DNA of 64,000 bases from sequence record OM386658.1. One strand, 5' to 3'. This DNA comes from Escherichia phage vB_EcoM_ESCO32. The notes beneath the pieces are model-generated. The model saw only the letters and a list, made by a program, of their open reading frames with translations. It did not search any database and had not been told where the DNA came from. A program made the translations under genes and the position numbers. Shown in pieces: positions 9,429-50,429 of this stretch (position 1 is the stretch's first letter; each line of letters begins with the position of its first letter).

Positions 9429-9526
9429 ATAAGACTAAAATCACTTAAAAAGAACCGCTAGAGTTTGAAGGAGAAAACCATGAGCGAAAAGAGAAATTTT
9501 CTCTAGCGATTCCATTTAAATAATCT

Positions 9527-9601
9527 TGGAGCGAGTAACAGGACTTGAACCTGCACCTGGAGGGTGGAAACCTCATATGCTACCATTAACACTATACCCG
9601 C
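9527..9601 (-). tRNA. tRNA-Gly(TCC)
   Basis: Acceptor GCGGGTA/TACTCGC, anticodon loop TTTCCAC, T-arm GCAGG-TTCAAGT-CCTGT, CCA. Confidence 0.55.
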
Positions 9602-9656
9602 TTAACAATATTACTCTAACATATTATTAGCCCCTTTGTCAAGAGGCTTTTAATAT

Positions 9657-9980
9657 TTATTTTAAAATAGTAGATGCACCACGTCTATTTAGATATGCAA
9701 CCGTAAAGCTCAAATCACCTATTTCTTCAGGTTCCCACTGACCTTCTAAGCCATAACAAGAACAATGATATGCGTGTACTTCATAAAACAAAGATGTTTT
9801 CATATCATAGAAATAAACGTGAGATTCGCCTTCATAATATGCACAATCATAAGTGGCAGAAAGAATTACAATGTTATCCTTATCTAACTCTACTTCATAA
9901 TATCTTTCAACATCTTCAATATCATCAAAACCATCGAAAACATTGATATTAAAATATTTCTCTAACTCTTTTTCTGTCAC
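9657..9980 (-). CDS. hypothetical protein (Cys/Tyr-rich)
   Basis: ORF track; N-terminus trimmed to GTG after AAAGGAG because longer ORF overlaps tRNA-Thr. Confidence 0.35.
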   Translation of the reverse strand: MTEKELEKYFNINVFDGFDDIEDVERYYEVELDKDNIVILSATYDCAYYEGESHVYFYDMKTSLFYEVHAYHCSCYGLEGQWEPEEIGDLSFTVAYLNRRGASTILK

Positions 9981-10002
9981 ATACACTCCTTTAGAGTTAA
10001 AT

Positions 10003-10076
10003 TGGTGCTCCCACAAGGACTCGAACCCTGATAAGTTGCTTACAAGGCAACCGTAATAGCCGTTATACGATAGGAG
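10003..10076 (-). tRNA. tRNA-Thr(TGT)
   Basis: Acceptor GCTCCTA/TGGGAGC, anticodon arm GTTGC-CTTGTAA-GCAAC, T-arm CAGGG-TTCGAGT-CCTTG, CCA. Confidence 0.6.
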
Positions 10077-10156
10077 CAAAATATTTGCTTGGTAGGATTT
10101 GATACCTACAATTCTAGAAAATTCTAGAGGTTTCTATTAACTCTACAAGCACTATT

Positions 10157-10241
10157 TGGCGATGGATCAAGGATTTGAACCTTGCTAGAACTTTCGTTCA
10201 CGGATTAACAGTCCGTCGCCCAACCACTAGGCCAATCCATC
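10157..10241 (-). tRNA. tRNA-Asn(GTT)-like with extra long variable arm (atypical)
   Basis: Anticodon arm ACGGA-CTGTTAA-TCCGT (Asn-like), then GAAC-GAAA-GTTC extra hairpin, T-arm CAAGG-TTCAAAT-CCTTG, acceptor GATGGAT/ATCCATC, CCA. Confidence 0.4.
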
Positions 10242-10248
10242 TTTAATT

Positions 10249-10335
10249 TGGTGCAGGTAGTTGGACTCGAACCAACGAAGCCCCGAAGGGCAGGAGATTT
10301 ACAGTCTCCAGCAATTGCCGCTATGCGATACCTAC
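10249..10335 (-). tRNA. tRNA-Tyr(GTA), type II
   Basis: Acceptor GTAGGTA/TACCTGC, anticodon arm GGAGA-CTGTAAA-TCTCC, long variable arm, T-arm GTTGG-TTCGAGT-CCAAC, CCA. Confidence 0.6.
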
Positions 10336-10340
10336 GTGTT

Positions 10341-10416
10341 TGGTACATCGTGAAGGATTCGAACCTTCGACCTTGGAGTTAAAAGCCCCTTGCTCTACCA
10401 ACTAAGCTAACGATGT
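10341..10416 (-). tRNA. tRNA-Lys(TTT)
   Basis: Acceptor ACATCGT/ACGATGT, D-arm GCTT-AGTTGGTA-GAGC, anticodon loop CTTTTAA, T-arm GAAGG-TTCGAAT-CCTTC, CCA. Confidence 0.65.
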
Positions 10417-10586
10417 ATAAATTATCTTTAAAATAGCCAGTGTTCGCACCACTGACTATGAGGTATCGGTAAGATGGTGGGGGCCATCTGCCGAAAGTCT
10501 ACTCTATTAAAGTAAGATGGTTGCAGCCATCCTTCCAAAAAGTTACACCAAGCAACTAAGAGTAACAAGCTACATTAAAGATAACT

Positions 10587-10672
10587 TGGCGGTAGATGTA
10601 GGACTTGAACCTACACGCCGTTTCCGACGACAGTTTAGCAAACTGTTGTGGCTACCATTTCACCAATCTACC
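10587..10672 (-). tRNA. tRNA-Ser(GCT), type II
   Basis: Acceptor GGTAGAT/ATCTACC, anticodon arm ACAGT-TTGCTAA-ACTGT, long variable arm, T-arm GTAGG-TTCAAGT-CCTAC, CCA. Confidence 0.6.
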
Positions 10673-10680
10673 GTTCTTAA

Positions 10681-10833
10681 TTATTCAAAACAACCGGAAT
10701 CTTTTTGTTCTGTTTTTACCATACGAATATTCTTACCATCTTCAGATTGTTGAAGATTAGAATACTCATAAACAACTTTATTATTTACAATCTTAACTCC
10801 GGTAACAACCTGTCCAATAGTTTTATAATTCAT
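10681..10833 (-). CDS. hypothetical small protein (about 50 aa)
   Basis: ORF track trimmed to internal ATG (MNYKTIGQ...) preceded by AGGAGC; sits between tRNA genes. Confidence 0.3.
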   Translation of the reverse strand: MNYKTIGQVVTGVKIVNNKVVYEYSNLQQSEDGKNIRMVKTEQKDSGCFE

Positions 10834-10851
10834 AAAGCTCCTAAGAGAATT

Positions 10852-10941
10852 TGGAGGAAGATAATGGAGTCGAACCATCACCGTATCGCTACAATGGGCC
10901 AGGGTTCAAACCTGGTTGCGCACCGCTGCGCCCTACCTTCC
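10852..10941 (-). tRNA. tRNA-Ser(TGA), type II
   Basis: Acceptor GGAAGGT/ATCTTCC, anticodon arm CCAGG-TTTGAAC-CCTGG, long variable arm, T-arm GATGG-TTCGACT-CCATT, CCA. Confidence 0.55.
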
Positions 10942-11004
10942 TGTTACCATACTTTAAATCTAACATAAAACTATCTTGCTTGTCAAGTAGTTTTTAAAAC
11001 TTTT

Positions 11005-11086
11005 TGGCCGGGGTGACAGGATTCGAACCTGCATACTCCAATTACTCGGTTAACGCCTGATTAGAAGTCAGGTGAGATACACCCCG
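11005..11086 (-). tRNA. tRNA-Arg(TCT)-like element with atypical architecture
   Basis: Acceptor CGGGGTG/CACCCCG, anticodon arm CCTGA-CTTCTAA-TCAGG, T-arm GCAGG-TTCGAAT-CCTGT, CCA; but only 5 nt where the D-arm should be and a 23-nt segment between anticodon and T arms. Confidence 0.35.
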
Positions 11087-11267
11087 TTTTCATAATGACT
11101 ATAACAAAAAACTAAGTAAATGTCAAGATATTTTTTACTAAAATTACTATTTAAATTGAAGCCTAGTTATGGAATCGAACCATATTTCGTATTTAGTTAG
11201 ACAAAGCGGTCTAACATATTTTTCAGGCTTTGATGGCCTCGGAATTACCAAATACCCTACTAGGTGT

Positions 11268-11353
11268 TGGTGCAAGTGGAGGGATTCGAACCCTCAAGCA
11301 TTTAAGCGTTGCGTTTTAAGCACAATGTGTATCACCAATTCCACCACACTTGC
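11268..11353 (-). tRNA. tRNA-Leu(TAA), type II
   Basis: Acceptor GCAAGTG/CACTTGC, anticodon arm TTGTG-CTTAAAA-CGCAA, long variable arm, T-arm GAGGG-TTCGAAT-CCCTC, CCA. Confidence 0.6.
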
Positions 11354-11384
11354 ATATAGGAGATGCATAGCACCTCCTTTTAAA

Positions 11385-11460
11385 TGGTGGTTCCCCAGGG
11401 TTACAATCCCTGCCCTCGACACTTATGAGGTGTGCGCTCTCGTCAGTGAGCTATGGAACC
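11385..11460 (-). tRNA. tRNA (CAT anticodon; Met or Ile2) with non-canonical T-loop
   Basis: Acceptor GGTTCCA/GGGAACC, D-arm GCTC-ACTGACGA-GAGC, anticodon loop CTCATAA, T-arm CAGGG-ATTGTAA-CCCTG (no TTC), CCA. Confidence 0.45.
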
Positions 11461-12205: not shown

Positions 12206-13939
12206 TTAGTCAACCTGGATGGTTCCCATAGTACGAAGAACCTCTACATCAACACGGTTGCGGATATCAGTAAATGTTTCATCACGTCCTTCTACTTGTG
12301 GTGTAATAACCGTACCATCCCTGAAGATAACTTTTAACTCATTGTCTTCATCTTGGATATCTTTAAAAGAAAGATTATCCACAAGAGAAAGTTTACCGTT
12401 TGTATCCTTAACAACCTTAATAAAACCTTTTGCAGAGCGTTTACCAGGATCAGTTTTAGGCTCCTTACTTACCAAAATTTCGTGTTCACCGATGATACTA
12501 CCTGTTGCTTTAACAGCAAAACCAAAAGTATCTCGTGTATTGAACTGATAAGTATAACTACCAACACCAAATACAATATTGGAAGCTGCAAAACCTTTCT
12601 TCTTCAGTCGGCGTAAGATCTCGTGTTCTCGTTCAACAGTAATAGAATCACCATAAATCATACCGATGTGCTGATCAAGAACCTTGTAGCCTTTTCGGTT
12701 GATAGTACCACCAAACACTTCCCAAAGGATTTGAATAGAACCTACTGCTTCACAATAAGGAATCTCATAAGTTTCATCAATACAATCAGCAACACTGCAA
12801 TCCTGAAGAACATTGTAATACTTATTAACATCAGCCAAATGAACTACTTCAGTGGCTGTAGCAATACCATTATTTAAAAGGTCTTCATAGTTATCAAAAG
12901 ATTCAACATTGTATCCTGCAACAACTTTAACCGGATCTCCTGAATCTGGACGAATAACAAGACGACCATTTCGTGACATAATGGACTCTTTCAATTCTAC
13001 CAGAATGCGAGTCAAGACAGCCCAGTAATCATAAGAATCTGCTACATATGAACAAAAACCTTCTGGAACAATTTCTTCAATATAGCGGCGAAGAAACTCT
13101 TTCTCTGCTACATAACGAAGCCCATCAACATCATCTTTAAGATGTGGGAAATGTTTCTTCAGATCTTCAACAATAGCTCCAATGTTAGTCGTTGCTACTG
13201 AATGTTCTGTTGCCGGAATAGAACCTGCAACAAATTGATCATAATCAATACCATAGTAATCATGCACAGTTTCAATAGCCAGAATATTATCTGTTCCTGT
13301 GAAAGATGCCAAATGAGCGATACCACTCTTATAACCATCTTCGATATTGCTTAAGCCACGTAGACTAAAGTCATGACACTGGAAATTAACGTGATCAATG
13401 TTATCACACGTTGCCATCGCATACGCCATAGCGATACGCTTATACTGAAAAGCTGCTGTGGCATTAGTCATTGTCTTCCAAGTTTCATCTGACAAGAGTG
13501 TTTCCACATAGTTAGTTAACCAAAAGAATTTTTCTAAAGTGTTATGCACAGTAAACACAGGAACACCAATAGGACACAAAACACCTTCTGGCAGAGATCG
13601 AACTTCTAGCGGAAGATAACCTAAGTCGTGCAATTCTCCCCAACATTCAGCAGAAGGAGCAGAAGCACCTAATGCATTTTTAGACATACGGTAAAATTTA
13701 TTTACTGCTGCACTACGAGACATTTTAAAGAAGCTATCCCACATAGTTACAAGAGCATCAGTAACTGCTCGACGAATACCTAAAACAATTACACCACGTG
13801 CTTCACGATCTGCATAGTGTGCAAAGTTTTTATCATTACGAGGAGTTAAATTAGAGAAAATGAGTTTTGTATTTTGGTTGTACATCTGCTTGTGACCAGG
13901 CTTATACCAATCAGTAGCAAAAGGTGCAAAAATATTCAT
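12206..13939 (-). CDS. nicotinamide phosphoribosyltransferase-like enzyme (NAMPT family; Namat-type of phage NAD+ reconstitution pathway)
   Basis: 577 aa, NAMPT-like length and composition; immediately downstream of PRPP-synthetase-like gene, the arrangement described for phage NARP1. Confidence 0.75.
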   Translation of the reverse strand: MNIFAPFATDWYKPGHKQMYNQNTKLIFSNLTPRNDKNFAHYADREARGVIVLGIRRAVTDALVTMWDSFFKMSRSAAVNKFYRMSKNALGASAPSAECWGELHDLGYLPLEVRSLPEGVLCPIGVPVFTVHNTLEKFFWLTNYVETLLSDETWKTMTNATAAFQYKRIAMAYAMATCDNIDHVNFQCHDFSLRGLSNIEDGYKSGIAHLASFTGTDNILAIETVHDYYGIDYDQFVAGSIPATEHSVATTNIGAIVEDLKKHFPHLKDDVDGLRYVAEKEFLRRYIEEIVPEGFCSYVADSYDYWAVLTRILVELKESIMSRNGRLVIRPDSGDPVKVVAGYNVESFDNYEDLLNNGIATATEVVHLADVNKYYNVLQDCSVADCIDETYEIPYCEAVGSIQILWEVFGGTINRKGYKVLDQHIGMIYGDSITVEREHEILRRLKKKGFAASNIVFGVGSYTYQFNTRDTFGFAVKATGSIIGEHEILVSKEPKTDPGKRSAKGFIKVVKDTNGKLSLVDNLSFKDIQDEDNELKVIFRDGTVITPQVEGRDETFTDIRNRVDVEVLRTMGTIQVD

Positions 13940-14010: not shown

Positions 14011-14904
14011 TTAAAAATTCCACACGTATGGAGATACAATTTGTTGTTGCAAATCTGACTGATTCTTAACAAGAACACCGGAATCTTCTTGGATGTTATC
14101 TTCCCACACATTAAGAGAATGAATGCAGTCAAAGTGCTCACTTAACTCTTTAAGACCTTTAGAAAAGATACCGTGTGTAACATATAACTCAATCTTACCT
14201 GCGTTACGAGCACGTAGCACTTTAGCCAATTCAATAAAAGTTCTACCGCCGTCACAGATATCATCTACGATCATCAGGTTACGCTTATTGAAATCCTGTA
14301 CAGAAATGTCTGTACGAACAATAGCACCTGTTGCAGTATCTCTAACCTTCTCTGCACAGAACACATCTAAAGACATTTTCTTAGATAATTTAAATATTTT
14401 CTTAAGAGCACCACCATCAGGACTAACAAGAGCAAAATTCTCCATACGTAACTTCCACTTTAAAGTTTCGTAAGCAATCTCTTCTTGAGGTATTACACAG
14501 AGTCTGTCAAACACTGCTGGAGTAACATCACTATGTGGATCAGCAACGATAACACGTGAGAAATTTAATGAATTAATTATAGAAGCAAATGCTTTAACTC
14601 CGAATGCTTCCCCAGGTTCACACACTCTGTCTTGTCGTGCATATGGCACATACAACATGAGCAAATCAACACAATATGGTTTATGATATAGCATATTGTC
14701 CAATGCATTCTTAGTCATAACCAAAGTCATCAAGTCTTTAGCAGATCTTACTTCTAAAGAGAGTAAGATTCTGTCTGTAGCATGATTGAAACCTGATAGA
14801 TTCGTGTCTAGTTGAACATGTTGTTCTCCACCAGAGAACGTAAAGACTTTAACGTCTACATCAGTAACATAACAGTCAACACCATGTAGAATACTAACTT
14901 TCAT
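14011..14904 (-). CDS. ribose-phosphate pyrophosphokinase-like enzyme (Prs family; Adps-type of phage NAD+ reconstitution pathway)
   Basis: 297 aa; Prs-like motifs VSPDGGALKK and MIVDDICDGGRT (PRPP-binding loop); adjacent to NAMPT-like gene. Confidence 0.75.
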   Translation of the reverse strand: MKVSILHGVDCYVTDVDVKVFTFSGGEQHVQLDTNLSGFNHATDRILLSLEVRSAKDLMTLVMTKNALDNMLYHKPYCVDLLMLYVPYARQDRVCEPGEAFGVKAFASIINSLNFSRVIVADPHSDVTPAVFDRLCVIPQEEIAYETLKWKLRMENFALVSPDGGALKKIFKLSKKMSLDVFCAEKVRDTATGAIVRTDISVQDFNKRNLMIVDDICDGGRTFIELAKVLRARNAGKIELYVTHGIFSKGLKELSEHFDCIHSLNVWEDNIQEDSGVLVKNQSDLQQQIVSPYVWNF

Positions 14905-34770: not shown

Positions 34771-34968
34771 ATGATGCTAGATCAACTGATCAATGCTCCT
34801 CGCGTAACAGTAAGTCCAAAAACATTTGCATCACTTTTAGAAGATGCTAAAGAGGTTTATAACTTTACTGAAGAAGAGCTTCCTGTTCCTGTTGAAAAAG
34901 GTTCCAGATGGTTGTTTTATGAAGGTATTATTTTTACTGAAGGGAATAATTGGAAGGAGACTAAATGA
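34771..34968 (+). CDS. hypothetical protein
   Basis: Internal ATG after AAGGAGG. Confidence 0.3.
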   Translation: MMLDQLINAPRVTVSPKTFASLLEDAKEVYNFTEEELPVPVEKGSRWLFYEGIIFTEGNNWKETK

Positions 34969-35954
34969 AATACTTAGTAACAGGTGGTTTAGGCTTTATT
35001 GGAAGTGCGGTAGTTCGTTTCCTGGCTAAAAATACTAAGAACGATATTTACGTTATAGATAAATGGGGTTACGCTTCAGATCCTAGAAATTTAGCAGAAA
35101 CACCTAATGTAAAGTTTTGTCGTGTTGACTTGACAAATGCGCAGGTAACTGCTAAGATTGTGGCAGATGTTAATCCAGATTATATAATGCATCTTGCAGC
35201 AGAAAGTCACGTAGATAATTCAATAGCATCACCGAGTGTTTTTATAAATTCAAATATTGTTGGGACATTTAATCTTCTAGAAGCTGTTCGTTTAATGGGA
35301 GATAAATCAAATCTTAAAATGTTCCATCATATTTCAACAGATGAAGTGTATGGTGATCTGGAAGAAGGGGATTATCCGTTTACAGAACAGAATCCTTATA
35401 AGCCAAGTAGTCCATATGCTGCATCTAAGGCAGCAAGCGATCATTTGGTAAGAGCGTGGCATCGTACTTATGGTATTCCGACAGTTATAACAAATTGTTC
35501 AAATAATTTTGGAGCATATCATCATCCAGAAAAACTAATACCTAAAACGATAACAAATATCTTGATGCATAAACCAATCCCTGTTTATGGCAATGGTCTT
35601 CAAGTAAGAGATTGGTTATACGTTGACGATCACGCAGAAGCATTACACCTAGTAGTAACTAAAGGCAAATCTGGAGAAACATATAATATTGGGAGCAGAA
35701 ACCCTAGAACTAATATTGATGTAATCTATATGATTTGTGATTATATGGATGCGGTGTATCCATCTGAAACAGATGCTTGTAGCCTCATTGAGATGGTTAC
35801 AGATAGACCTGGACATGATTTAAGATATGAAGTGAATCCTTATAAGATTGAAAAGGAATTAGGGTGGAAAGCTAAAGGCACATTTGAAGAAAAACTTTAT
35901 TCAACCATTGATTGGTATGTAGATAACAAAGAGTGGTGGGAAAATAAAGTTTAA
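34965..35954 (+). CDS. rmlB: dTDP-glucose 4,6-dehydratase
   Basis: SDR fold: [10 protein letters not shown] Rossmann motif, YAASK catalytic YxxxK, typical length 329 aa. Confidence 0.85.
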
Positions 35955-35962
35955 GGAGGAGT

Positions 35963-36832
35963 ATGAAAGGTATTATCTTAGCAGGTGGTAGTGGAACAAG
36001 ACTTTACCCAGTTACTAAAGGGGTTAGTAAACAACTATTACCAATTTATGATAAGCCTATGATTTATTATCCGCTCTCTGTCCTAATGCTTTCTGGAATT
36101 AGGGAAATACTAATAATTACAACACCAGAAGATCAAATTAATTTTGTAAATCTTCTAGGTGATGGTTCTTCTTTTGGTATTTCCCTACAGTATGCAATAC
36201 AGGATAGCCCAAAAGGTTTAGCAGAAGCGTTTATTATTGGTGAGAACTTTATTGGTGAAGATTCTGTAGCACTTGTGCTAGGTGATAATTTATTCTTTGG
36301 TCAGAGTTTTGGTAGCATTTTAGATTCTGCTAAAGAACATATTGAAAAGAATGGTGGAGCTAATATTTTTGGGTATCACGTAAATGATCCTGAAAGATTT
36401 GGTGTTGTTGAGTTTGATTCTGAAGGTACAGTGGTGAGTATTGAAGAAAAACCAAAAGCACCAAAAAGCAACTACGCAATCACAGGCTTGTACTTTTACG
36501 ATAATTCTGTTATACAGAAAGCTAAGAGCGTTAAACCTTCTGCTAGAGGGGAGTTAGAGATTACAGATATAAATGAGATGTACTGGAAAGAAAAGACTTT
36601 ACGTGTCTGTAAACTAGGAAGAGGTTTCACTTGGCTGGATACAGGAACACATGAAAGTCTTATGGAAGCATCTCAATTTGTTCATGCAATAGAAAAGCAA
36701 CAAGGTATGAAGGTTGCATGCCTGGAAGAGATTGCTTTTAAAAATGAATGGATTACTTTAGACTCTGTAAAAAGTTCTGGAGAGGTTTTAAGTAAAACAG
36801 ACTACGGTAAGTATTTACTTAAATTAAAATAA
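35963..36832 (+). CDS. rmlA: glucose-1-phosphate thymidylyltransferase
   Basis: N-terminal [14 protein letters not shown] nucleotidyltransferase signature; 289 aa. Confidence 0.85.
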
Positions 36833-36844
36833 AGGGGGAATTAA

Positions 36845-37399
36845 ATGATTCAAGCAACAAAAATCGAAGATTTGTTGATCATTCAACCTGACGTTTACGG
36901 AGATGAACGTGGCTTTTTCTTAGAAAGTTTTAATCAGGCTTTATATGATCAATACATAGGTAAACAAAACTTTGTCCAAGATAACCATTCACGTTCTATT
37001 CGAGGAGTTCTACGTGGGCTTCATTTTCAAAAGAAAAACCCACAAGGGAAGTTAGTACGTTGTGTTCGTGGTGAAGTTTATGATGTTGCTGTAGATATTA
37101 GGGTTGGTAGTCCAACATTTGGAGAATGGGTAGGTGTTCTCTTATCTGAAAAGAATAAAACACAATTTTGGATTCCTCCTGGTTTCGCTCATGGCTTTGT
37201 TGTGATTAGTGACATTGCTGATTTTGAATATAAATGTACAGAATATTACGATCCGACTTCAGAGTGTAGTCTTGCGTGGAATGATCCAGATATCAATATT
37301 GATTGGGGTTTTGATTTAATCTTTAATGATATTAATTTTAAACCTATCTTGTCACAAAAAGATCAGGAAGCCAAAACACTAAAGGAGATCATATTTTGA
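36845..37399 (+). CDS. rmlC: dTDP-4-dehydrorhamnose 3,5-epimerase
   Basis: 184 aa cupin; DERGFFLE and HFQK motifs typical of RmlC. Confidence 0.8.
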   Translation: MIQATKIEDLLIIQPDVYGDERGFFLESFNQALYDQYIGKQNFVQDNHSRSIRGVLRGLHFQKKNPQGKLVRCVRGEVYDVAVDIRVGSPTFGEWVGVLLSEKNKTQFWIPPGFAHGFVVISDIADFEYKCTEYYDPTSECSLAWNDPDINIDWGFDLIFNDINFKPILSQKDQEAKTLKEIIF

Positions 37400-38226
37400 C
37401 AAAATTTTTAATCTTTGGTTCAAAAGGTCAATTAGGACAATCTTTGGCAAAAGTTGCACCAGAAGATGTTATTTTGATTGAAGCAAGTGATATAGACATT
37501 ACCAACTTTAAAGATGTTATGAATAGTCTTGTACAGCACGTGCCTGATGTTGTTGTGAATTGTGCGGCTTACACGGCAGTAGATAAAGCTGAAGAAGATG
37601 TTAACACCTGTATAAATGTTAATGCATACGGTGCAACAAACATTGCCAAAGCATGTAATGATTTACTGATACAGTTTGTACATATTTCAACAGACTATGT
37701 TTTTGATGGGCATGTTGCTGGCACAGAAGATAGTAAAACAAACCCCTTGAACACCTACGGTTACAGTAAACAATTAGGTGAAACTTTAGTACAAACAGTT
37801 TGTCCTACAGCACTTACTATCAGAACAGCTTCTGTTTATAGTGAATTTGGACATAACTTTTTGAAAACTATGTTGGAACGCTACAACGGTGGTCAAAAAG
37901 AATTTAATGTAGTATGTGATCATTTGTCGTGTCCTACTTATGCACCTGATCTTGCAGAAACAATTTTTAAACTTGTAAAAGATGGTGTAAATAGTAAAAT
38001 TGTACACTATGCAGGTGCAGATTATATTTCTTGGTATGATTTTGCACGAAAGATATTTCTTGTTATAGATTTATCTGTTACAGTTAATCCTGTATCTGCT
38101 TCAACCTATAATTCCAAAGCAGTCAGACCAGCAACATCTTATTTAAAAACAGATCCTACTTTAAATCCGCGAAGTGTTGATAGCGGTATTGTAAGAACTT
38201 TAACTATACTTTTAAACAAGGAGTGA
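37396..38226 (+). CDS. rmlD: dTDP-4-dehydrorhamnose reductase
   Basis: 276 aa SDR; GSKGQLG N-terminus, YGYSK catalytic motif; completes RmlB-A-C-D set. Confidence 0.75.
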   Translation: MTKFLIFGSKGQLGQSLAKVAPEDVILIEASDIDITNFKDVMNSLVQHVPDVVVNCAAYTAVDKAEEDVNTCINVNAYGATNIAKACNDLLIQFVHISTDYVFDGHVAGTEDSKTNPLNTYGYSKQLGETLVQTVCPTALTIRTASVYSEFGHNFLKTMLERYNGGQKEFNVVCDHLSCPTYAPDLAETIFKLVKDGVNSKIVHYAGADYISWYDFARKIFLVIDLSVTVNPVSASTYNSKAVRPATSYLKTDPTLNPRSVDSGIVRTLTILLNKE

Positions 38227-41162: not shown

Positions 41163-41591
41163 ATGTTACCAGTACCTGTAATCTTTGTAGAAAAAGCCTA
41201 CTACTCTTTAGAACAAAATTGTAAAAGAGCTAAAAATTTTATTGAAAGTTTAGCAGAACAGCGTTACACTGTATCTAAAAAGGGATGGTTCAGAACTTCA
41301 CAATATTTAGTCAACCCTTTCGGAGAAGTTCGTGTGTTGTATGGCAACACAGAAAATATCTTAGAAAGAATGTTAGAACTAGACAGGATCTCCTCCTGTG
41401 ATTATCAACTGTTGAAATTTTACGATGTGTCAGAAAACGTTAAAAACTTTCTTGATGACTTATGTAAACGAAAAACAGAAGAAGATACAATACCAGTATC
41501 TATGGAAGAATTAACGTTCTTAAGAGATATTATGGTTTTTGAAGAAAACCCTGAAATCACAAAAGAGGAGATTTTAAGTAGTGGCAAATAA
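41163..41591 (+). CDS. hypothetical protein
   Basis: ORF track; RBS AGGAGG. Confidence 0.35.
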   Translation: MLPVPVIFVEKAYYSLEQNCKRAKNFIESLAEQRYTVSKKGWFRTSQYLVNPFGEVRVLYGNTENILERMLELDRISSCDYQLLKFYDVSENVKNFLDDLCKRKTEEDTIPVSMEELTFLRDIMVFEENPEITKEEILSSGK

Positions 41592-42090
41592 GTATGATCG
41601 TCCACCAACTGATTACTATCCTACTCCACAAAAATGTATAAATGCATTATTTAGTGTAATAGATTTTAATAACCTTAAAGAAGAAGGTTTTATTTTTGCA
41701 GAACCGTGTAAAGGCGCTGCTGCTGCAATTTATCAACATTTTCCAGAAGGATCAGAATATTGTGAGTTAGAAGAAGGGAAGGATTATTTTAACCACGAAT
41801 GGCATACTAAGCCGGATATTATAATCACAAATCCACCATTCAGACTTGCACTTGAGTTCTTGCAAAAGAGCTTAAAAGAAGCAGACGTTTGCATATACTT
41901 GTTGCGTCTTGGGTTCCTAGAGTCTATTAAACGAAGGGAATTCCATAAACAGAATCCACCAACAAATTTGATTGTTCTTTCTGAACGACCATCTTTTGTT
42001 GCAGGTGGTACTGATAAGACAGCATATGCTTGGTACGTCTACGACCCAAAAAACAGGCTGGGTTTAACTCAACCTTTCTATTTTGTTTAA
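41581..42090 (+). CDS. small amino-methyltransferase (DNA N6-adenine or N4-cytosine MTase, putative)
   Basis: DYYPTP near N-terminus, EPCKGAAAA (SAM-binding-like), IITNPPF catalytic (D/N)PP(Y/F) motif. Confidence 0.55.
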   Translation: MANKYDRPPTDYYPTPQKCINALFSVIDFNNLKEEGFIFAEPCKGAAAAIYQHFPEGSEYCELEEGKDYFNHEWHTKPDIIITNPPFRLALEFLQKSLKEADVCIYLLRLGFLESIKRREFHKQNPPTNLIVLSERPSFVAGGTDKTAYAWYVYDPKNRLGLTQPFYFV

Positions 42091-42569: not shown

Positions 42570-42594
42570 TCCTGCAACAGAACAGGAGGGTATT

Positions 42595-43257
42595 ATGAAG
42601 TTTGTACTGTATCATCGACTTTCTAAGAAGAAACAACAAGGCAACCAGTATGGTATAGAATCACAGGAAGCAGATATCCAACGCTTCCTGGATTCACAAG
42701 AAAATTATACTATTGTAGGTAGCTTTGCAGAGTTTTATTCTGGTAAAGGCGATTGGAAGCAACGTAGAGAGCTTGTAAAAGCTGTTAATCTTTGCAAAGA
42801 AACAGGTGCTACACTTGTTGTTGCTAAGGTTGACCGTCTGGGACGTAACACAGCTTCTGTTGCAACCTTGTTAGAGATGATTAATGTACGGATAGCAACT
42901 ATGCCCTCCGCTGAAAATATGATAATAAATATTTTAGCAGTTCTGGCAGAAGAAGAGGCTCGTGCAATATCTGATCGTGTTAAGAAGAGCCTTAAGGTAG
43001 CAAAAGCGAAGGGAACGCTTCTTGGTGCAGCAAACCCTAAATACAAAAGAACAGATTATACGAAAACGGAAGAAGCAAAACGCTCAAGAGAGTTTGCGCT
43101 TTCTTTAAAAGATTCTTTAGTTGCATACAGAGCTTGTAAAACGCCATATATGACGATTGCAAAGCATCTGAATGAATCAGGAAAGAGAACTATTCGTGGG
43201 AGTTTGTTCGATGCCAAAGCGGTACAACGTCTTTGTGCAAAATTGAATATTAAATAA
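42595..43257 (+). CDS. serine recombinase (resolvase/invertase family)
   Basis: N-terminal YHRLSKKKQ (catalytic Ser context), GATLVVAKVDRLGRN signature, E-helix region, C-terminal HTH-like tail. Confidence 0.6.
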   Translation: MKFVLYHRLSKKKQQGNQYGIESQEADIQRFLDSQENYTIVGSFAEFYSGKGDWKQRRELVKAVNLCKETGATLVVAKVDRLGRNTASVATLLEMINVRIATMPSAENMIINILAVLAEEEARAISDRVKKSLKVAKAKGTLLGAANPKYKRTDYTKTEEAKRSREFALSLKDSLVAYRACKTPYMTIAKHLNESGKRTIRGSLFDAKAVQRLCAKLNIK

Positions 43258-43266
43258 GGAGGAAAC

Positions 43267-43470: not shown

Positions 43471-43481
43471 AGGAGTTAAAT

Positions 43482-44054: not shown

Positions 44055-44064
44055 GGAGAAGGGG

Positions 44065-45454: not shown

Positions 45455-45464
45455 GGAGAAAACC

Positions 45465-46043
45465 ATGAGCGATTTATTCTACACAGGTGTTGGTAGCAGA
45501 GATATTACAGACGAAGAATGGGATACTATGGTATCTGTTGCAAAATGGTTATCTACATGGTTCATTTTGCGGTCTGGTAAAGCAGAAGGTGCAGATTCCG
45601 CATTTGAATGCGGGGTATATGATAGTGGGAACAATACGAAGAAAGAAATATACATCCCTTGGCTCTCGTTTAAAGGTAATGAGATAGAGGGAGAGGTTAT
45701 TGTTCTTGACAGACCAGATAGTGTAAACTATGCTTTAACCTTACAATATGCAAAAGAATTGCATCCAGCTTGGGACAGATTATCTCAAGGTGCTAAAAAA
45801 TTACATCAAAGAAATATCCACCAAGTTCTTGGAAGAGATCTTGAGAATCCAAAACCATCTTGTTTTCTTTTAGCTTGTGCAAATACAGATAAAAATGGAG
45901 ATCCTTTAGGTGGTACAAGAACAGCTTGGATGTTGGCTAAAAAGTTTAATGTCCCTTGTTTTAATATTCGAGGTAAAAGTAAAAAACAAATTTTCGAATT
46001 TATTAAGCCTATTTTAGAGGAGAATGGTCTTGTCCAGAAATAA
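45465..46043 (+). CDS. DprA/Smf-like SLOG-domain protein
   Basis: YTGVGSRDI...LRSGKAEGADSAFECG resembles DprA Rossmann motifs; ATG after AAGGAG. Confidence 0.45.
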   Translation: MSDLFYTGVGSRDITDEEWDTMVSVAKWLSTWFILRSGKAEGADSAFECGVYDSGNNTKKEIYIPWLSFKGNEIEGEVIVLDRPDSVNYALTLQYAKELHPAWDRLSQGAKKLHQRNIHQVLGRDLENPKPSCFLLACANTDKNGDPLGGTRTAWMLAKKFNVPCFNIRGKSKKQIFEFIKPILEENGLVQK

Positions 46044-46548
46044 TATAAGCGTCATTAAAGATAGTTTTATTGATGTAACAAACGATATTGTACCTACAAT
46101 ACAATATATAGTTGAGGCACAAGGTTTAAACTTTATACGTGATAAAGTTAAGATTGTTTTTCATAACACTCCAGGTTTTGTAATAGTAGATTCAACAAAA
46201 ACGATGTATCCTACAGATCTGATTACTTTAGACAAAAACTTAACACAAGAAGAAGTAGAAATTCTTAACCTCTATTGGTTAGGTTTTAAAAGATACGAGG
46301 ATACAGCTTTATCCCGAATGTCAACTATTTTAGCTAACATTCTGGTTCGGAAAATTTCTAAACTATGGGATGAAGAAAACCCAGATGAAATAGTTTTACA
46401 CTTTGCTAAACCGGAAGACGGGGCATATGATATAGACACATCTGAAATGGCTTACGGGTTTATTATTTCTGGTAATGTATTACAGATGGAATCTTTATTG
46501 TATGTTGAGACAGTAAAACACAATAACAACTACGAGGAGGTTGTATGA
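46024..46548 (+). CDS. hypothetical protein
   Basis: ORF track. Confidence 0.3.
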   Translation: MVLSRNNISVIKDSFIDVTNDIVPTIQYIVEAQGLNFIRDKVKIVFHNTPGFVIVDSTKTMYPTDLITLDKNLTQEEVEILNLYWLGFKRYEDTALSRMSTILANILVRKISKLWDEENPDEIVLHFAKPEDGAYDIDTSEMAYGFIISGNVLQMESLLYVETVKHNNNYEEVV

Positions 46549-46802
46549 AAGGTTTAGAGTTTAACTTTGTAGATGCGTGGGAAGGATGGGATGAACTAGG
46601 AGTAGGGGATTTATGTTTTTATGATGTTACCTTGAAGGAAGAATACAAACATCTAGCTCCTAGTGAAGATTGCGATGTGATTCTATCTATCCTATTAAGT
46701 CAGTCTATAGTGCAATTTGATTTTCTAAAAGGTAGTGAGTGTATTGAAAGTAAAGCATTCCGTTTAGAAGTTTCTCTTGGTGAAGAAGTTCCTGTAGAAT
46801 AA
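46545..46802 (+). CDS. hypothetical acidic protein
   Basis: ORF track. Confidence 0.3.
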   Translation: MKGLEFNFVDAWEGWDELGVGDLCFYDVTLKEEYKHLAPSEDCDVILSILLSQSIVQFDFLKGSECIESKAFRLEVSLGEEVPVE

Positions 46803-46805
46803 TAT

Positions 46806-46830
46806 AAACCCGCTTCGGCGGGTTTTTTGT
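46806..46830 (+). terminator. rho-independent terminator (CCCGC-TTCG-GCGGG plus T6)
   Basis: Strong hairpin followed by TTTTTTG. Confidence 0.7.
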
Positions 46831-46858
46831 TGACAACACCAGTTTTTTCGAATAAACT
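46830..46858 (+). promoter_or_regulatory. sigma70-like promoter (TTGACA - 17 nt - TAAACT)
   Basis: Consensus -35 immediately after terminator; upstream of 46885 gene. Confidence 0.4.
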
Positions 46859-46884
46859 ACAGAAAAACAGAAGAGGAGATTAGC

Positions 46885-47295
46885 ATGTATTATAGTGATT
46901 ATTTTGTAAACCCAACAAAAGAACAACTTCAATCAGCAGTGGATAAGATGCAGATTGTAGTTAAAGAATGTGAGAAAATAAGAAAACAACTACAAGAAGA
47001 GACTGTTGTTGCTAATAAATGGTTTGGTCTTAAGAAGAAAGTTGTTAGTAAACACGATATCATCCTTGAAAAAGCAAAAACGACAGGAACTAGTTACGCC
47101 TTACAAGCCTTGTTACTAAATTACATTGATATAGAACAACATTCTCTTCTGCACTGTTGGCTTAACAGCCCTGGTATTGAGGATCTCTTGTTCTGGTTAT
47201 CGTGTGAATCTGTACTTTTAAATGAGAATGAGGCTTATCGTTTAAACTTCTGCCTCAAGGCAGAATTACCAGCTAGTGTTAAGGAGAAGAAGTAA
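46885..47295 (+). CDS. hypothetical protein
   Basis: ORF track; RBS GAGGAG. Confidence 0.35.
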   Translation: MYYSDYFVNPTKEQLQSAVDKMQIVVKECEKIRKQLQEETVVANKWFGLKKKVVSKHDIILEKAKTTGTSYALQALLLNYIDIEQHSLLHCWLNSPGIEDLLFWLSCESVLLNENEAYRLNFCLKAELPASVKEKK

Positions 47296-47297
47296 TA

Positions 47298-48287
47298 ATG
47301 AAAGTTTTAAGTCTTTTTGATGGTATGTCAGGAGGAATGCTTGCGCTAAAAAGTGCAGGTATTGAAGTAGATACATATTATGCTTCAGAATTAGACAAAT
47401 TCGCCATAGCTGAAAGCCAAGCAAATTTTCCAGATATTATTCAGTTAGGTGATGTTACAAAATGGAGAGAATGGGATATTCCGTGGGGAGAAATTGATCT
47501 TTTGTTAGGTGGTAGTCCGTGTCAAGGCTTCTCTTCTTCTGGTAAGGGTTTGAACTTTCAAGATCCGCGATCTAAGCTATTCTTCGAATATGTTGAGATT
47601 CTTGAACATATTAAAAAGTTTAACCCTAATGTTAAGTTCATGCTTGAAAACGTTAAGATGAAAGTGGAGTGGGAAAACGTGATCACAAGTTACTTAGGTG
47701 TTGATCCCGTATTCATTAACTCCGCAGATTTCACGGCACAAAATAGACAACGTTTATACTGGTGCAACTGGGAAATAAAACCTTGGGATATTACCAATGA
47801 AGTGTTGCAAGATATCATTGAAGATGATAGTATCGTAGACAGAGATAAGGCTTATTGCATAGATGCAAATTATGCCAAAGGTGGTAATATAGAACAGTAT
47901 TTTGAAAAGAGTCGCAGACAACTGGTTTTTTATCCGGCAGCAATATATGGGCGTAGAATTAATGAAAATGGTAAACGTAGTACATCTAAAACTGATCGTT
48001 TGGTACATTGTTTGGAAGTTCAGGACAGTGAAAAAACTCGTTGCCTCACGACTGTGCCTAAAGACGTACTATTAGCCTACATTCCACCTGGAAGATATCT
48101 AGATGCCTTTGAAAAATTGAGTGAAGGCGTACATTATAGAAAGTTAACGGTTAAAGAGTGTTGCCGCTTGCAAGGTGTGCCAGATGATTACTTTAAAGTG
48201 AGTAGTAACACACAAGCATATAAGATGTTAGGCAATGGTTGGACTATACCTGTCATTGCACATATTCTTAAATGTATGGAGGAATAA
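47298..48287 (+). CDS. DNA cytosine-5 methyltransferase
   Basis: Motif I LFDGMSGG, motif IV GGSPCQGFS (catalytic Cys), motif VI ENV. Confidence 0.8.
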   Translation: MKVLSLFDGMSGGMLALKSAGIEVDTYYASELDKFAIAESQANFPDIIQLGDVTKWREWDIPWGEIDLLLGGSPCQGFSSSGKGLNFQDPRSKLFFEYVEILEHIKKFNPNVKFMLENVKMKVEWENVITSYLGVDPVFINSADFTAQNRQRLYWCNWEIKPWDITNEVLQDIIEDDSIVDRDKAYCIDANYAKGGNIEQYFEKSRRQLVFYPAAIYGRRINENGKRSTSKTDRLVHCLEVQDSEKTRCLTTVPKDVLLAYIPPGRYLDAFEKLSEGVHYRKLTVKECCRLQGVPDDYFKVSSNTQAYKMLGNGWTIPVIAHILKCMEE

Positions 48288-48410
48288 TGGAAACATTGTG
48301 GAAAGGCTGGAAGACTGCTCTGATAGCTTTTATAATTCCATTAACTTTTCTTGGTTGGTGTTTTTGGGAATTTATCTTTTGGTTAATTTCCCATATACAT
48401 TGGGGGTAAT

Positions 48411-49019
48411 ATGACTCAAAAAGTTGCATATCAAGTAGATCGTGAAGATGGTGAAGGTAGTGTTGTAGTTTTTGATACACATGGCCTTGCAGCAAGACGC
48501 AAAGGAGCTTGTCTACTGGACATTGGTGGTGAAGATGAATACTGCACTGTACGTAGAGTAAAAGAATTTGATCAATATGCTGAAAAAGGTTTTGTACCTG
48601 TGAAAGCACTATTAGAAGCTGGATGGTGGATACCTAGTGCACATGATTATGATATTTTGGAAGATACAGATGAATTCAACAGCGAGGATTTTGTTTTTTC
48701 TCTGGATGAAAAATGCGTTTGGAAAGACTGGGATGAAATGGAACGCCATGCTTATTTTATAAACGAAGCATTAGATCGTAAAACTTGGTTTGAAAATACA
48801 GTTAAAGCAGCGTATCCTCAATTTACTTTTACACAGTTTTGGGGTGGCCCACATCATATTACTCATACAGCATATTTCGAGTTCCCAGGTTCACGTTATA
48901 AAGGTACTGTTTATTGGGATTGGGACGAGGACAAAGAACCTTCTGCTCAAGACTTCCGTTGCTATGTTTGTCAAGGTGATCAAGAAGCCCTTGACAAGTA
49001 CCTTAAAAGTCTGGTATAA
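48411..49019 (+). CDS. hypothetical protein (Trp/acidic-rich)
   Basis: ORF track. Confidence 0.35.
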   Translation: MTQKVAYQVDREDGEGSVVVFDTHGLAARRKGACLLDIGGEDEYCTVRRVKEFDQYAEKGFVPVKALLEAGWWIPSAHDYDILEDTDEFNSEDFVFSLDEKCVWKDWDEMERHAYFINEALDRKTWFENTVKAAYPQFTFTQFWGGPHHITHTAYFEFPGSRYKGTVYWDWDEDKEPSAQDFRCYVCQGDQEALDKYLKSLV

Positions 49020-49035
49020 TCCGTAAAACTTAACC

Positions 49036-49063
49036 AAAGCCCCCAGGCAGGGGCTTTATTTGT
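49036..49063 (+). terminator. rho-independent terminator (GCCCC-loop-GGGGC plus T-tract)
   Basis: Hairpin followed by TTTATTTGT. Confidence 0.5.
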
Positions 49064-49074
49064 CTGGAGAATAT

Positions 49075-49605
49075 ATGGGTTTTGATGACATGTTATTATA
49101 TGAGGAGGCTTGTGTGAAAGAAGCTATGGCTTTACCAGTTTTATCTATTGATATTACAACAGTAGACACTTTTTCAGATTGTGAAACGTGTGGATCGTAT
49201 TCGTCTATTGTACATGAGGTTAGTGGGGATTTAGGCACTTACGAAGATGGAGATTATGCAAGTTGTTTAGGTGATAATCGAGATGGTGAAGTGGCGAATG
49301 TTGCAAACTGGATTGCTTCTAAGTTAAAAGAAAGAAATCGTCCGTTCCCTAATCTTCTTACACCAGAAGCTATGCTTAAAGCTGAACAAGAGATGTATGA
49401 TTATGGTTATAAAGTAGATTATGACTATAATGATCCTAAATATAAAAAATTGAGTGACAAGTATTGGGAACTAGCTAATGCTTATGATAAATACTACTCT
49501 ACAGAAAACATTGTTAAATTGTTTTTAGATTTTGGAGTAGAAATTAATTGGGATTTCGAAGAGGAAGAGCGTTACGACGCATCTTCTTGGGATGATGATT
49601 ACTAA
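49075..49605 (+). CDS. hypothetical acidic protein
   Basis: Internal ATG after GGAGAAT. Confidence 0.35.
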   Translation: MGFDDMLLYEEACVKEAMALPVLSIDITTVDTFSDCETCGSYSSIVHEVSGDLGTYEDGDYASCLGDNRDGEVANVANWIASKLKERNRPFPNLLTPEAMLKAEQEMYDYGYKVDYDYNDPKYKKLSDKYWELANAYDKYYSTENIVKLFLDFGVEINWDFEEEERYDASSWDDDY

Positions 49606-49616: not shown

Positions 49617-50429
49617 ATGCGAAGAGTAATTTTTGTTAGTGGCGCAGGTTTAAGTGCAGACAGTGGGATTCGAACGTTCCGAACAGACACAGATAGTGGT
49701 CGTGCCTTATGGGAAGAATATGACTTAGAAGAGGTCTGCGATATTGGAGCTTTCCAAGCAGGTTATCGTGTGAGAACATCTCCAGATCTTCCAGTGGTCG
49801 GTGGTGTAGACGAGAACGGTATGGACTTGTATGCCAAAACACACGAATTTTATAACAAAAGACGTGTTGAGCTTAAAGATGTACAACCTAATGCTGCACA
49901 TATTCAAATAGCAAGGTGGTTTAAGGAATATCCTAACCAAGTAGTAAACTTGACAACAAACGTTGATGACCTACTAGAGCGAGCAGGTGTAGACAGGGAT
50001 TCTGTTATTCACGTGCACGGATATCTTCCTGAAGTAGTTTACCGTATGCATCCTGGAGATTACAAAACACTGGTAGACATTGGTTACAATAGTATAAACA
50101 TAGATGATTATAACTGGGTGAAGCCTAATGTTGTATTTTTTGGTGAGGCTGCACCTTTGTATGCAGATATGGCTCACTTGTTTGATACTTTGACCATGCA
50201 AGATTTGGTTGTTGTAGTAGGATGTTCAAACCAAGTTATCAATTTTAATTGGGAATTATTCCCTGCACTTAATATGGGTACAAAAATGATCGTTGTTAAC
50301 CCAGGAATTAATTACGAAGAAACTCTTCTTTACGAAGATAGAGGAGTCTTTGTTTATAGAGAAAAGGCAGCAGATGCTTTTAGCAATCCTGCTTTCATAA
50401 AAATGATAGAAGATCATTTGACTAAGTAA
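49617..50429 (+). CDS. SIR2-family (sirtuin-like) NAD+-dependent enzyme lacking zinc-ribbon module
   Basis: GAGLSADSGIRTFR NAD-binding signature, QPNAAHIQIA, TTNVDDLL, catalytic HVHG, VVFFGE, VVVGCS; no CxxC pairs. Confidence 0.7.
   Translation: MRRVIFVSGAGLSADSGIRTFRTDTDSGRALWEEYDLEEVCDIGAFQAGYRVRTSPDLPVVGGVDENGMDLYAKTHEFYNKRRVELKDVQPNAAHIQIARWFKEYPNQVVNLTTNVDDLLERAGVDRDSVIHVHGYLPEVVYRMHPGDYKTLVDIGYNSINIDDYNWVKPNVVFFGEAAPLYADMAHLFDTLTMQDLVVVVGCSNQVINFNWELFPALNMGTKMIVVNPGINYEETLLYEDRGVFVYREKAADAFSNPAFIKMIEDHLTK

Follow-up and report, generated by a model that had tools for sequence, protein, structure and literature searches.

Two orphan methyltransferase genes of a phi92-like Escherichia coli phage: a C5-cytosine enzyme and a small, probably adenine-N6-specific enzyme

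Orphan methylases are a textbook category among phage genes. The closest known counterparts of a C5-cytosine enzyme in such a genome are orphan phage methylases of the M.HaeIII/M.HhaI type, 324–331 aa in length, with a ten-motif architecture that includes PCQ, ENV and QxRxR. Stand-alone phage methylases have been reviewed (Murphy et al., 2013, as cited in PMC12210895). Dcm/M.EcoRII (CCWGG) offers a further likeness, as it too methylates C5 and comes from an E. coli-associated genome. Among the amino-methyltransferases, M.TaqI, HsdM (type I) and Eco57I/Alw26I carry (Y/F)xTP before the SAM loop and then NPPF. The small phage Dam proteins (PF05869/TIGR01712) and the Hia5 family (PMC3299994) are phage-borne and have a TP motif followed by NPP(Y/F) without a large recognition domain. 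An NPPF-type active site is also found in the minimal RNA m6A methyltransferases METTL5/PH1948 (COG2263), KsgA/Erm and TrmM.

We analysed two methyltransferase genes in a 64,000-nucleotide stretch of Escherichia phage vB_EcoM_ESCO32 (record OM386658.1), hereafter the window. The product of the first, 329 aa long, has the ten-motif architecture of the HaeIII/HhaI archetypes; its top solved-structure sequence matches, oddly, were the DNMT3A/B catalytic domains. The second product shares the (Y/F)xTP and NPPF motifs of the gamma-class N6-adenine enzymes, which were also its best fold matches (3ufb, M.TaqI), but it has only 169 aa, lacks a TRD or S-subunit partner and reaches TM-scores of only 0.45–0.6. 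In size, motifs and phage origin it is like the small phage Dam and Hia5 proteins. The minimal RNA enzymes resemble it in size, active site and fold (TM 0.5–0.6) but differ in three respects: none matches it significantly in sequence, the gene lies in a phage DNA-metabolism context, and no TRMT112-like partner is evident.

The window belongs to a Justusliebigvirus (phi92-like) phage of E. coli and shares 98–99% identity with over 50 GenBank genomes, in which both methyltransferase genes are already annotated. The BME3 phage paper had also named both as orphan type II methyltransferases, and the pair is thus already known and published for phi92-like phages. One "DNA methyltransferase" label in the public BME3 record belongs in reality to a prohead protease. 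The searchable literature yielded neither a methylome nor biochemical data for Justusliebigvirus phages; methylation in this genus is covered neither in the 2026 Durham modification paper nor in the Danish wastewater paper. Both genes sit among genes of replication, recombination and nucleotide metabolism. The phage carries 15 tRNA genes, and the array lacks tRNA-Asp. The features discussed below are as follows.

41564..41570, plus strand, Shine-Dalgarno-like AGAGGAG, 10 nt 5' of the GTG of the small methyltransferase gene (read from the sequence)
41581..42090, plus strand, predicted minimal amino-methyltransferase gene, 169 aa, GTG start, gamma-type motif order
47281..47286, plus strand, Shine-Dalgarno-like AAGGAG, 11 nt 5' of the ATG of the C5 methyltransferase gene (read from the sequence)
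47298..48287, plus strand, orphan C5-cytosine DNA methyltransferase gene, 329 aa, ATG start (assigned from motifs and family match)

With moderate confidence we favour the explanation that these are two orphan SAM-dependent methyltransferases in the long plus-strand block of DNA-metabolism genes that this virulent phi92-like phage carries, the C5 enzyme being of type II style and the small one most likely a DNA N6-adenine methylase, and that they provide narrow shielding only.

Judged by its sequence, the product of ORF 47298..48287 is a bona fide, full-length C5-cytosine DNA methyltransferase. The preliminary description had reported LFDGMSGG, PCQGFS and ENV in this ORF, and all three were recovered from the translation (LFDGMSGG at residues 6–13, SPCQGFS at 73–79, ENV at 117–119), in the contexts GGSPCQGFS and MLENV and together with LGNGW. 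All expected motifs were present: I (FDGMSGG), IV (PCQ), VI (ENV), VIII (QNRQR) and IX/X (RLQGVPDDY...GNGW). The family model PF00145 covered residues 1–327 of 329 (E=1.4e-43, 150 bits, cut-off 22), TIGR00675 scored 141.4 bits (cut-off 100.65), and the PADLOC model MTase_II matched with E=1e-45. In a sequence search of solved structures, DNMT3A/B, HaeIII and HhaI matched at E about 1e-23, over the catalytic core only. Assignment to the DNMT2-type tRNA C5 methyltransferases was rejected, as DNMT2 entries matched at only 5e-11 to 1e-7 compared with 1e-23 for DNMT3, HaeIII and HhaI.

The C5 gene was retained in all 54 related phage records, with 95.5–98.8% nucleotide identity. It was intact in 9/9 genomes compared, without stops or indels, and its variable codons comprised 69 synonymous and 8 non-synonymous ones; the corresponding numbers for the small methyltransferase gene in the same nine genomes were 14 and 2. 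Strong purifying selection thus acts on both of these core genes. In IMG/VR the C5 gene has at least 595 viral relatives of full length; with 56% as their highest identity, they were too remote for an analysis at population level. The preceding ORF ends (stop codon 47293–47295) 2 nt ahead of the C5 ATG, a layout suggesting that the two are expressed in operon style with translational coupling.

The second gene also agrees with the preliminary description, which had placed a compact amino-methyltransferase with DYYPTP and IITNPPF at 41581..42090. DYYPTP was found at residues 11–16 and IIITNPPF at residues 80–87, and the order of motifs (X-like DYYPTP, I-like EPCKGAA, the acidic E62, D68-Y69, IV TNPPF) is that of the gamma class, so that the protein is by its motifs an amino-methyltransferase of this type. 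In a 38-sequence family alignment, DxYPTP, EPCxGxG and TNPPF followed in the same order, TNPPF being invariant and the others invariant or nearly so; therefore, these are not chance strings. The gene overlaps the preceding ORF 41163..41591 by 11 nt, and the KMB37 record gives an identical start. Nothing in Pfam or NCBIfam matched the protein above threshold. Its sole curated-family match was phrog_799, "DNA methyltransferase" (1.7e-56). The family comprises 3028 clusters at 90% identity, and none of the best 120 listed carries a Pfam domain. The AlphaFold model (pLDDT 90) was Rossmann catalytic core throughout and contained no target-recognition domain, and no S-subunit-like neighbour of the gene was found with Pfam, phrog or PADLOC. 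Foldseek returned both DNA and RNA N6-adenine methyltransferases with TM-scores of 0.45–0.6.

To the C5 enzyme, the EmilieFrey record applies the label "Dcm-like". The Dcm/EcoRII subfamily model (NF007772) scored 29.9 bits (cut-off 710), its match being confined to residues 280–328, motifs IX–X; the Dcm-like PDB entries 3lx6 and 3me5 matched only residues 273–328. The variable region, about 110 aa long (roughly residues 160–270), aligned with no solved or named enzyme in the PDB-sequence search. Since the target-recognition region resembles nothing characterised, "Dcm-like" is unsupported as a subfamily label.

Traces of m5C deamination were sought in the window against BME3 and then against 8 relatives (9 genomes in all), using synonymous third positions only, with the majority allele giving the direction of change and codons serving as strata. 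The first pass gave 34% for G[C]GC against a 9% baseline and 25% for the Dcm-target C of CCWGG; neither signal was significant after stratification. In the nine genomes, with few motif sites, the codon-stratified numbers were 9 observed vs. 5.5 expected for G[C]GC (p=0.11) and 5 vs. 2.3 for C[C]WGG (p=0.09). CpG transitions were 1.1-fold under codon control, and no context was significant after correction for multiple testing. Because the motif sites were too few, this route to the target was given up. The observed/expected ratio of CpG was 0.69, with TpG/CpA in excess; CpG methylation was rejected as a reading of this depletion since the excess of CpG transitions vanished under codon control. 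The 5mC-cleaving enzyme BrxU acts on a class of phages to which PATM and Pau do not belong (PMC8565348), a finding that argues against dense cytosine methylation. The earlier view that target specificity is unreadable from the sequence thus held: the C5 TRD is without a characterised relative, and the mutation-spectrum test yielded no motif.

For the small enzyme, the predicted substrate is probably DNA adenine at N6, N4-cytosine being less likely. Sub-threshold Pfam matches included EcoRI_methylase in 34 of the 38 family members (best E=7e-4) as well as Dam, N6_Mtase (6.5e-4) and Eco57I (5e-4). Below the NCBIfam thresholds, the Alw26I/Eco31I/Esp3I model matched 19/38 members (1e-4) and MADS2 matched 11/38 (3e-5). 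One homologue is embedded in a group of three recognised DNA adenine methylase genes; others lie within replication or nucleotide-metabolism modules. Membership in the phage Dam family PF05869/TIGR01712 was rejected, with an hhalign probability of 8% against a PF05869 protein and matches in 7–13 of 38 members, all sub-threshold.

Published plating data bear on what methylation by these enzymes could achieve. EmilieFrey, 98.6% identical to the window, formed no plaques on EcoRI, EcoRV and EcoP1I hosts (PMC8594841). The BASEL paper described the phi92-like group as "exceptionally susceptible" to RM systems, and BREX lowers the plating of PATM and Pau about 1e7-fold (PMC8565348). These phages have proved highly sensitive to each of the strongly acting RM systems tried on them, so a protective benefit has never been seen. 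A non-specific adenine methyltransferase of the Hia5/M.EcoGII type is contradicted by the block of EmilieFrey on the three hosts and by the BREX sensitivity of PATM and Pau. In the genome, 25 of the 64 six-base palindromes, for which 172 occurrences in sum were expected, were absent; CCWGG, with 75 sites, was not avoided, while GGWCC occurred 0 times and CCSGG twice. The main passive defence of the genome is avoidance of restriction palindromes, a feature that the preliminary description had passed over. The preliminary description had taken the methylases as consistent with anti-restriction self-methylation. Because phi92-like phages plate as highly restriction-sensitive, this reading was narrowed: it is tenable in a site-specific sense and fails in the broad sense, given that EmilieFrey, PATM and Pau are blocked. 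Any anti-restriction effect of the two methylases is at best narrow and site-specific.

On the favoured explanation, the C5 enzyme would flip its target cytosine out of the helix, the PCQ cysteine would attack C6, and the methyl group of SAM would be transferred to C5, at a short sequence motif presumably read by the variable region. The small enzyme, a bare Rossmann core with an NPPF site, would methylate DNA adenine at N6 at restricted sites or with low activity. We infer that both act on replicating phage DNA; any protection would then be confined to restriction enzymes with recognition sequences that overlap the methylase targets.

Both methylases are orphans without a detectable cognate endonuclease, as had been proposed from the lack of such an enzyme in view. 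Searches of the flanking ORFs with Pfam and PADLOC (including REase models) gave no nuclease match; nuclease-like ORFs elsewhere in the window were RdgC-like, of exonuclease type, or an HNH-annotated ORF about 14–20 kb away. Type II endonucleases are frequently missed by sequence searches, and the conserved flanking ORFs 41163..41591 (142 aa), 46885..47295 (136 aa) and 48411..49019 (202 aa) have no assignable function, so one methylase could be half of a phage-borne RM pair with the endonuclease encoded next to it. We regard this as very improbable. The neighbour fold search covered the 202-aa ORF downstream of the C5 gene; the moderately confident model (pLDDT 78) showed no nuclease fold among solved structures (best Foldseek E=0.5), and the PADLOC REase models matched no neighbour. 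Across 80 distant loci, none of the neighbours co-occurred with C5 homologues, and homologues of the 202-aa protein formed 23 clusters vs. hundreds for the C5 methylase. A different and less improbable view, still unlikely in our estimate, concerns the substrate: the 169-aa protein may be an RNA methyltransferase (rRNA/tRNA m6A or m2G) or a protein glutamine-N5 methyltransferase directed at the translation apparatus or the phage tRNAs, and the C5 enzyme alone would then act on DNA. Among solved structures, its nearest counterparts by size and architecture all belong to the minimal RNA methylases: PH1948 (TMq 0.52–0.60 by chain, about half of the target covered) and likewise METTL5, TrmM, Dim1/KsgA and Erm. 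The Pfam MTS domain matched 20 of the 38 family members and HemK/PrmC models 6–8 (E no better than 1e-2). The absence of a target-recognition domain and the 15 tRNA genes fit as well, and the block of the near-identical EmilieFrey by EcoRI, EcoRV and EcoP1I means no broad adenine methylation of phage DNA. In the PDB-sequence profile search, ErmAM and METTL5 were only about tenfold behind the DNA enzymes. Against this view, DNA adenine methylases gave the more frequent and the stronger of the weak matches to the family, the only PADLOC match was a type II MTase model, and the gene context is one of replication and nucleotide metabolism, in one case of DNA methylase genes. Viral neighbours in fold space were mostly labelled DNA N6-adenine methylases, labels that are themselves predictions. 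Alignment with RNA or protein methyltransferases, named in the preliminary description as evidence against its reading, spoke neither for nor against it: the DNA enzymes HsdM and M.TaqI and the RNA enzymes KsgA/Dim1, Erm, METTL5, TrmM and PH1948 matched about equally weakly.

The two methylases may also serve mainly the phage's own biology, either by setting epigenetically when transcription, replication or packaging takes place, or as a self-mark that lets a phage nuclease degrade host DNA. Precedents exist: the Dam methylase of phage P1 is needed for pac-site cleavage, and in chlorella viruses methylases are paired with host-degrading nucleases. Such a role would suit the position of the genes in the DNA-metabolism block, the lack of protection against any strongly restricting system tested, and the strong purifying selection that keeps both as core genes even though broad protection is lacking. 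However, the analysis turned up no methylation-dependent element or packaging site and no self/non-self nuclease, and the case for such a role is purely inferential. Narrow anti-restriction against other enzymes (e.g., of EcoRII type) explains the same facts more simply, and we consider a mainly internal role quite unlikely.

As a discovery the pair carries little weight because both genes bear methyltransferase annotations in dozens of published, nearly identical phage genomes. The analysis has value mainly as a corrective: the anti-restriction reading is narrowed, "Dcm-like" is unsupported at the subfamily level, and one BME3 label is wrong. Some interest attaches to what the uncurated 160–200-aa methylases, which lack a recognition domain, modify and how they are targeted. 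For this large phage family of amino-methyltransferases, the real substrate may be RNA (rRNA/tRNA m6A), or a partner may be needed for targeting, although we think this improbable. If true, it would point to a widespread phage strategy of modifying the translation apparatus and not the genome.

Nucleotide similarity identifies the window as a segment of a virulent E. coli myovirus (~147 kb) that is already well sampled. In megablast searches, 51 phi92-like phage records covered at least 80% of window positions 41000-49500, and 60 records fell in the 95-99% identity band to this segment. Every one of these phages is phi92-like (genus Justusliebigvirus, Stephanstirmvirinae); they include VEcB, EmilieFrey, phi92, muut, alia, BME3 (PP239276), PATM, and Paula. 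The C5 gene of four records named 'UNVERIFIED Campylobacter phage' (MG065639, MG065645, MG065656, and MG065689) was 96.7% identical to that of the window; these records are classified as Justusliebigvirus, and one, MG065656 (locus L096), aligns with the window across ~50 kb. Their Campylobacter host label seems doubtful. The following ORFs were considered:

41581..42090, + strand: small methyltransferase ORF, 169 aa, GTG start, containing DYYPTP and IIITNPPF
47298..48287, + strand: C5 methyltransferase ORF, 329 aa
48411..49019, + strand: conserved 202-aa ORF (phrog_8514) directly 3' of the C5 gene, the best candidate partner
2590..3081, - strand: 163-aa ORF between the portal and scaffold genes, counterpart of the fourth BME3 'DNA methyltransferase'
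PP239276 52581..53312 (7582..8313 of the BME3 locus L012), outside the window: third BME3 methylase, a genuine PF01555 N6/N4 enzyme (E=1.9e-30)

The preliminary description had placed the first two ORFs by short sequence strings, and sequence, motifs, and family matches bore this out. Each gene has a Shine-Dalgarno-like sequence 10-11 nt before its start and touches or overlaps the preceding gene; both lie inside a long same-strand block with ligase, exonuclease, ribonucleotide reductase, thymidylate synthase, and dTDP-sugar genes. A serine recombinase/DNA invertase (PF00239, E=8e-22) is encoded at 42595..43257 (+), ~500 bp 3' of the small methylase gene, in this virulent phage. NAD-related genes were also observed: a Sir2-family protein at 49617..50429 (+) (PF02146, E=3e-22) and, at 12206..13939 (-) and 14011..14904 (-), counterparts of the BME3 nicotinamide phosphoribosyltransferase and ribose-phosphate pyrophosphokinase. 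PRPP-synthase and NAMPT-like genes are also neighbours of one distant small-methylase homologue (locus L005). The tRNA array at 8713..11460 (-) comprises 15 genes (Ile, Met x2, Leu x2, Phe, Pro, Gln, Gly, Thr, Asn, Tyr, Lys, Ser x2); tRNA-Asp and tRNA-Val are absent from it.

The C5 enzyme was matched end to end by PF00145 (E=1.4e-43), by TIGR00675 above the model cut-off, and by the PADLOC type II methylase model (1e-45). It contains the strings named in the preliminary description (LFDGMSGG, PCQGFS, and ENV) and the other C5-methylase motifs, QNRQR and RLQGVPDDY...GNGW. Its catalytic core matched the solved structures of DNMT3A/B, M.HaeIII, and M.HhaI at E ~1e-23, whereas the tRNA enzyme DNMT2 was a far weaker match (5e-11 to 1e-7). 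The mammalian DNMT3A/3B catalytic domains ranked marginally ahead of the bacterial M.HaeIII and M.HhaI. Alignments to solved structures spanned only residues 1-160 and ~270-328; the variable region between ~160 and ~270, which sets specificity in this family, had no match among solved structures. The Dcm subfamily model, whose cut-off is 710 bits, gave only 29.9, and 'Dcm-like' is therefore just a name, the relationship not being demonstrated. All 54 group records carry the gene, at 95.5-98.8% nucleotide identity. Among nine genomes compared, its variable codons were 69 synonymous vs. 8 non-synonymous, and no stop codons or indels were found. This conservation marks it as a functional core gene.

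Because m5C deaminates to T, close relatives were compared for C-to-T hotspots. An initial comparison with BME3 alone pointed to G[C]GC and to the cytosine of CCWGG that Dcm targets. In a second pass with nine genomes, polarised by majority and stratified by codon, no context showed a significant excess: G[C]GC gave 9 observed vs. 5.5 expected (p=0.11), C[C]WGG gave 5 vs. 2.3 (p=0.09), and CpG transitions were 1.1-fold. The view in the preliminary description that target specificity cannot be read from the sequence stands. The CpG observed/expected ratio of the window is 0.69, with TpG/CpA in excess (1.12-1.15); CpG depletion was rejected as evidence of CpG methylation since the synonymous-site transition excess vanishes under codon-context control.

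Avoidance of restriction palindromes in the window is very strong. Of 64 six-base palindromes, 25 are missing (summed expectation ~172 occurrences), and among six-mers expected 5-10 times, 11/17 palindromes are absent vs. 23/1050 non-palindromes. GGWCC occurs 0 times vs. 46 expected, GGNCC 5 vs. 74, and the HindIII site AAGCTT 0 vs. 29. No avoidance was seen for CCWGG (75), GCWGC (89), GCNGC (107), GCGC (56), GATC (252), EcoRI (GAATTC, 18), or EcoRV (GATATC, 27). The unavoided C-containing sites are only suggestive, either as candidate targets of the C5 enzyme or of host Dcm protection.

Published phenotypes strongly limit an anti-restriction role: the BASEL paper calls the phi92-like group 'exceptionally susceptible' to RM systems. 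Its raw plating data (PMC8594841; one replicate) cover EmilieFrey, 98.6% identical to the window across the methylase region: 2.7e7 pfu on the vector control, 3e6 with EcoKI, 2.7e7 with EcoCFT_I, 8e6 with EcoCFT_II, and zero plaques on EcoRI, EcoRV, and EcoP1I. The EcoRI and EcoRV sensitivity of these phages fits the lack of avoidance of both sites. BREX reduces phiPATM (H11) and phiPau (H24), the latter presumably Paula, ~1e7-fold (Picton et al. 2021, PMC8565348). Adenines in GAATTC, GATATC, AGACC, and GCTAAT are therefore unprotected, which rules out a non-specific Hia5-type adenine methylase. Both phiPATM and phiPau are in the class spared by BrxU, which cleaves 5mC-containing DNA (PMC8565348). 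Dense cytosine modification is ruled out, and any protection must be confined to enzymes overlapping the methylase target motifs. Anti-restriction self-methylation, with which the preliminary description considered the two genes consistent, fails as broad protection, given the EcoRI, EcoRV, EcoP1I, and BREX sensitivity, and is tenable only if narrow, against target-overlapping enzymes; the genome relies instead on avoiding restriction sites. For the region 34965..38226 (+), a DNA glycosylation role was speculated by others, yet phi92-like phages are still restriction-sensitive.

No nuclease was found by Pfam and PADLOC among the ORFs flanking both methylases. Nuclease-like genes of the window (an RdgC-like protein, two exonuclease-type proteins, and an HNH-annotated ORF) are 14-20 kb away, and the BME3 gene annotated 'endonuclease' at another position encodes a CapR + T5orf172 protein. 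Among the neighbours, which also include upstream ORFs of 136 and 142 aa, fold modelling covered only the 202-aa ORF. The 202-aa ORF has only 23 homologue clusters; its moderately confident model (pLDDT 78) resembled no solved structure (Foldseek best E=0.5, TM ≤0.24), so it was rejected as a hidden endonuclease. Its modelled fold may be new. Across 80 distant viral loci (1.04 Mb), C5 homologues were never accompanied by any of ten neighbouring window genes. With no flanking nuclease in Pfam or PADLOC, no fold match for the 202-aa ORF, and no partner co-occurring with the C5 gene, the description of the methylases as orphans is supported. At least 595 full-length viral relatives of the C5 enzyme (40-56% identity) are present in IMG/VR.

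Single-sequence searches matched the small enzyme to nothing in Pfam, NCBIfam, or the PDB sequences; its sole match was phrog_799 'DNA methyltransferase'. It belongs to a large family of 160-200-aa proteins (237 matches with the single sequence, 3028 with a profile); none of the best 120 of each set has a Pfam domain, and nearly all are unnamed. The family alignment showed an invariant TNPPF, an EPCxGxG loop, an N-terminal DxYPTP, and an RPxF motif, in the order of gamma-type amino-methyltransferases. Some members have a Cys-rich insertion that the phage enzyme lacks. Its variable codons (14 synonymous vs. 2 non-synonymous) show that purifying selection acts on the phage gene.

The small enzyme is probably a DNA adenine-N6 methylase without a recognition domain. 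Its confident AlphaFold model (pLDDT 90) is a bare Rossmann core with weak Foldseek matches in the PDB (E ~1e-4, TM 0.45-0.6). These are divided between DNA N6-adenine enzymes (HsdM 3ufb, M.TaqI, PacII, M.BseCI, and EcoKI M) and RNA N6-adenine enzymes (PH1948, Dim1/KsgA, Erm, METTL5, and TrmM), and a profile search of PDB sequences was as ambiguous. Action on RNA or protein is a less likely but serious alternative. Sub-threshold matches of all 38 family members lean to DNA: in Pfam, EcoRI_methylase (34/38), Dam (13/38), N6_Mtase (12/38), and Eco57I (9/38), as against the generic MTS domain (20/38); in NCBIfam, the Alw26I/Eco31I/Esp3I methylase (19/38, 1e-4) and MADS2 (11/38, 3e-5), as against HemK/PrmC/PrmB in 6-8/38, at E of 1e-2 or worse. 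Most viral fold neighbours carry the label DNA N6-adenine methylase, the labels being predictions. Distant homologues belong to phage modules for replication or nucleotide metabolism, and one is embedded in a cluster that also contains two MethyltransfD12 genes and one PF05869 Dam gene. Homology of the small enzyme to PF05869 was not demonstrable (8% probability in profile comparison).

Orphan phage methylases are a well-known category, and the present finding is already known from public annotation and one publication. The two genes are labelled 'Dcm-like C5 cytosine methyltransferase' and 'putative N6 adenine methyltransferase' in EmilieFrey, and 'cytosine-specific methyltransferase' and 'DNA N-6-adenine methyltransferase' in KMB37. 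They are two of the four methyltransferase CDSs of BME3, described as three classes of orphan type II DNA methyltransferases and thought to protect against host restriction (PMC12210895). The third is a 243-aa beta-class PF01555 protein adjoining the SSB gene. The counterpart of the fourth was rejected as a methyltransferase; it is a Peptidase_S78_2/XkdF-type prohead protease (E=2.6e-11), and the BME3 label (PP239276 86391..86870) is therefore wrong. The total for Justusliebigvirus is three methylase-type genes, not two. What remains of interest is the small enzyme's large, uncurated family, whose methylases lack a recognition domain.
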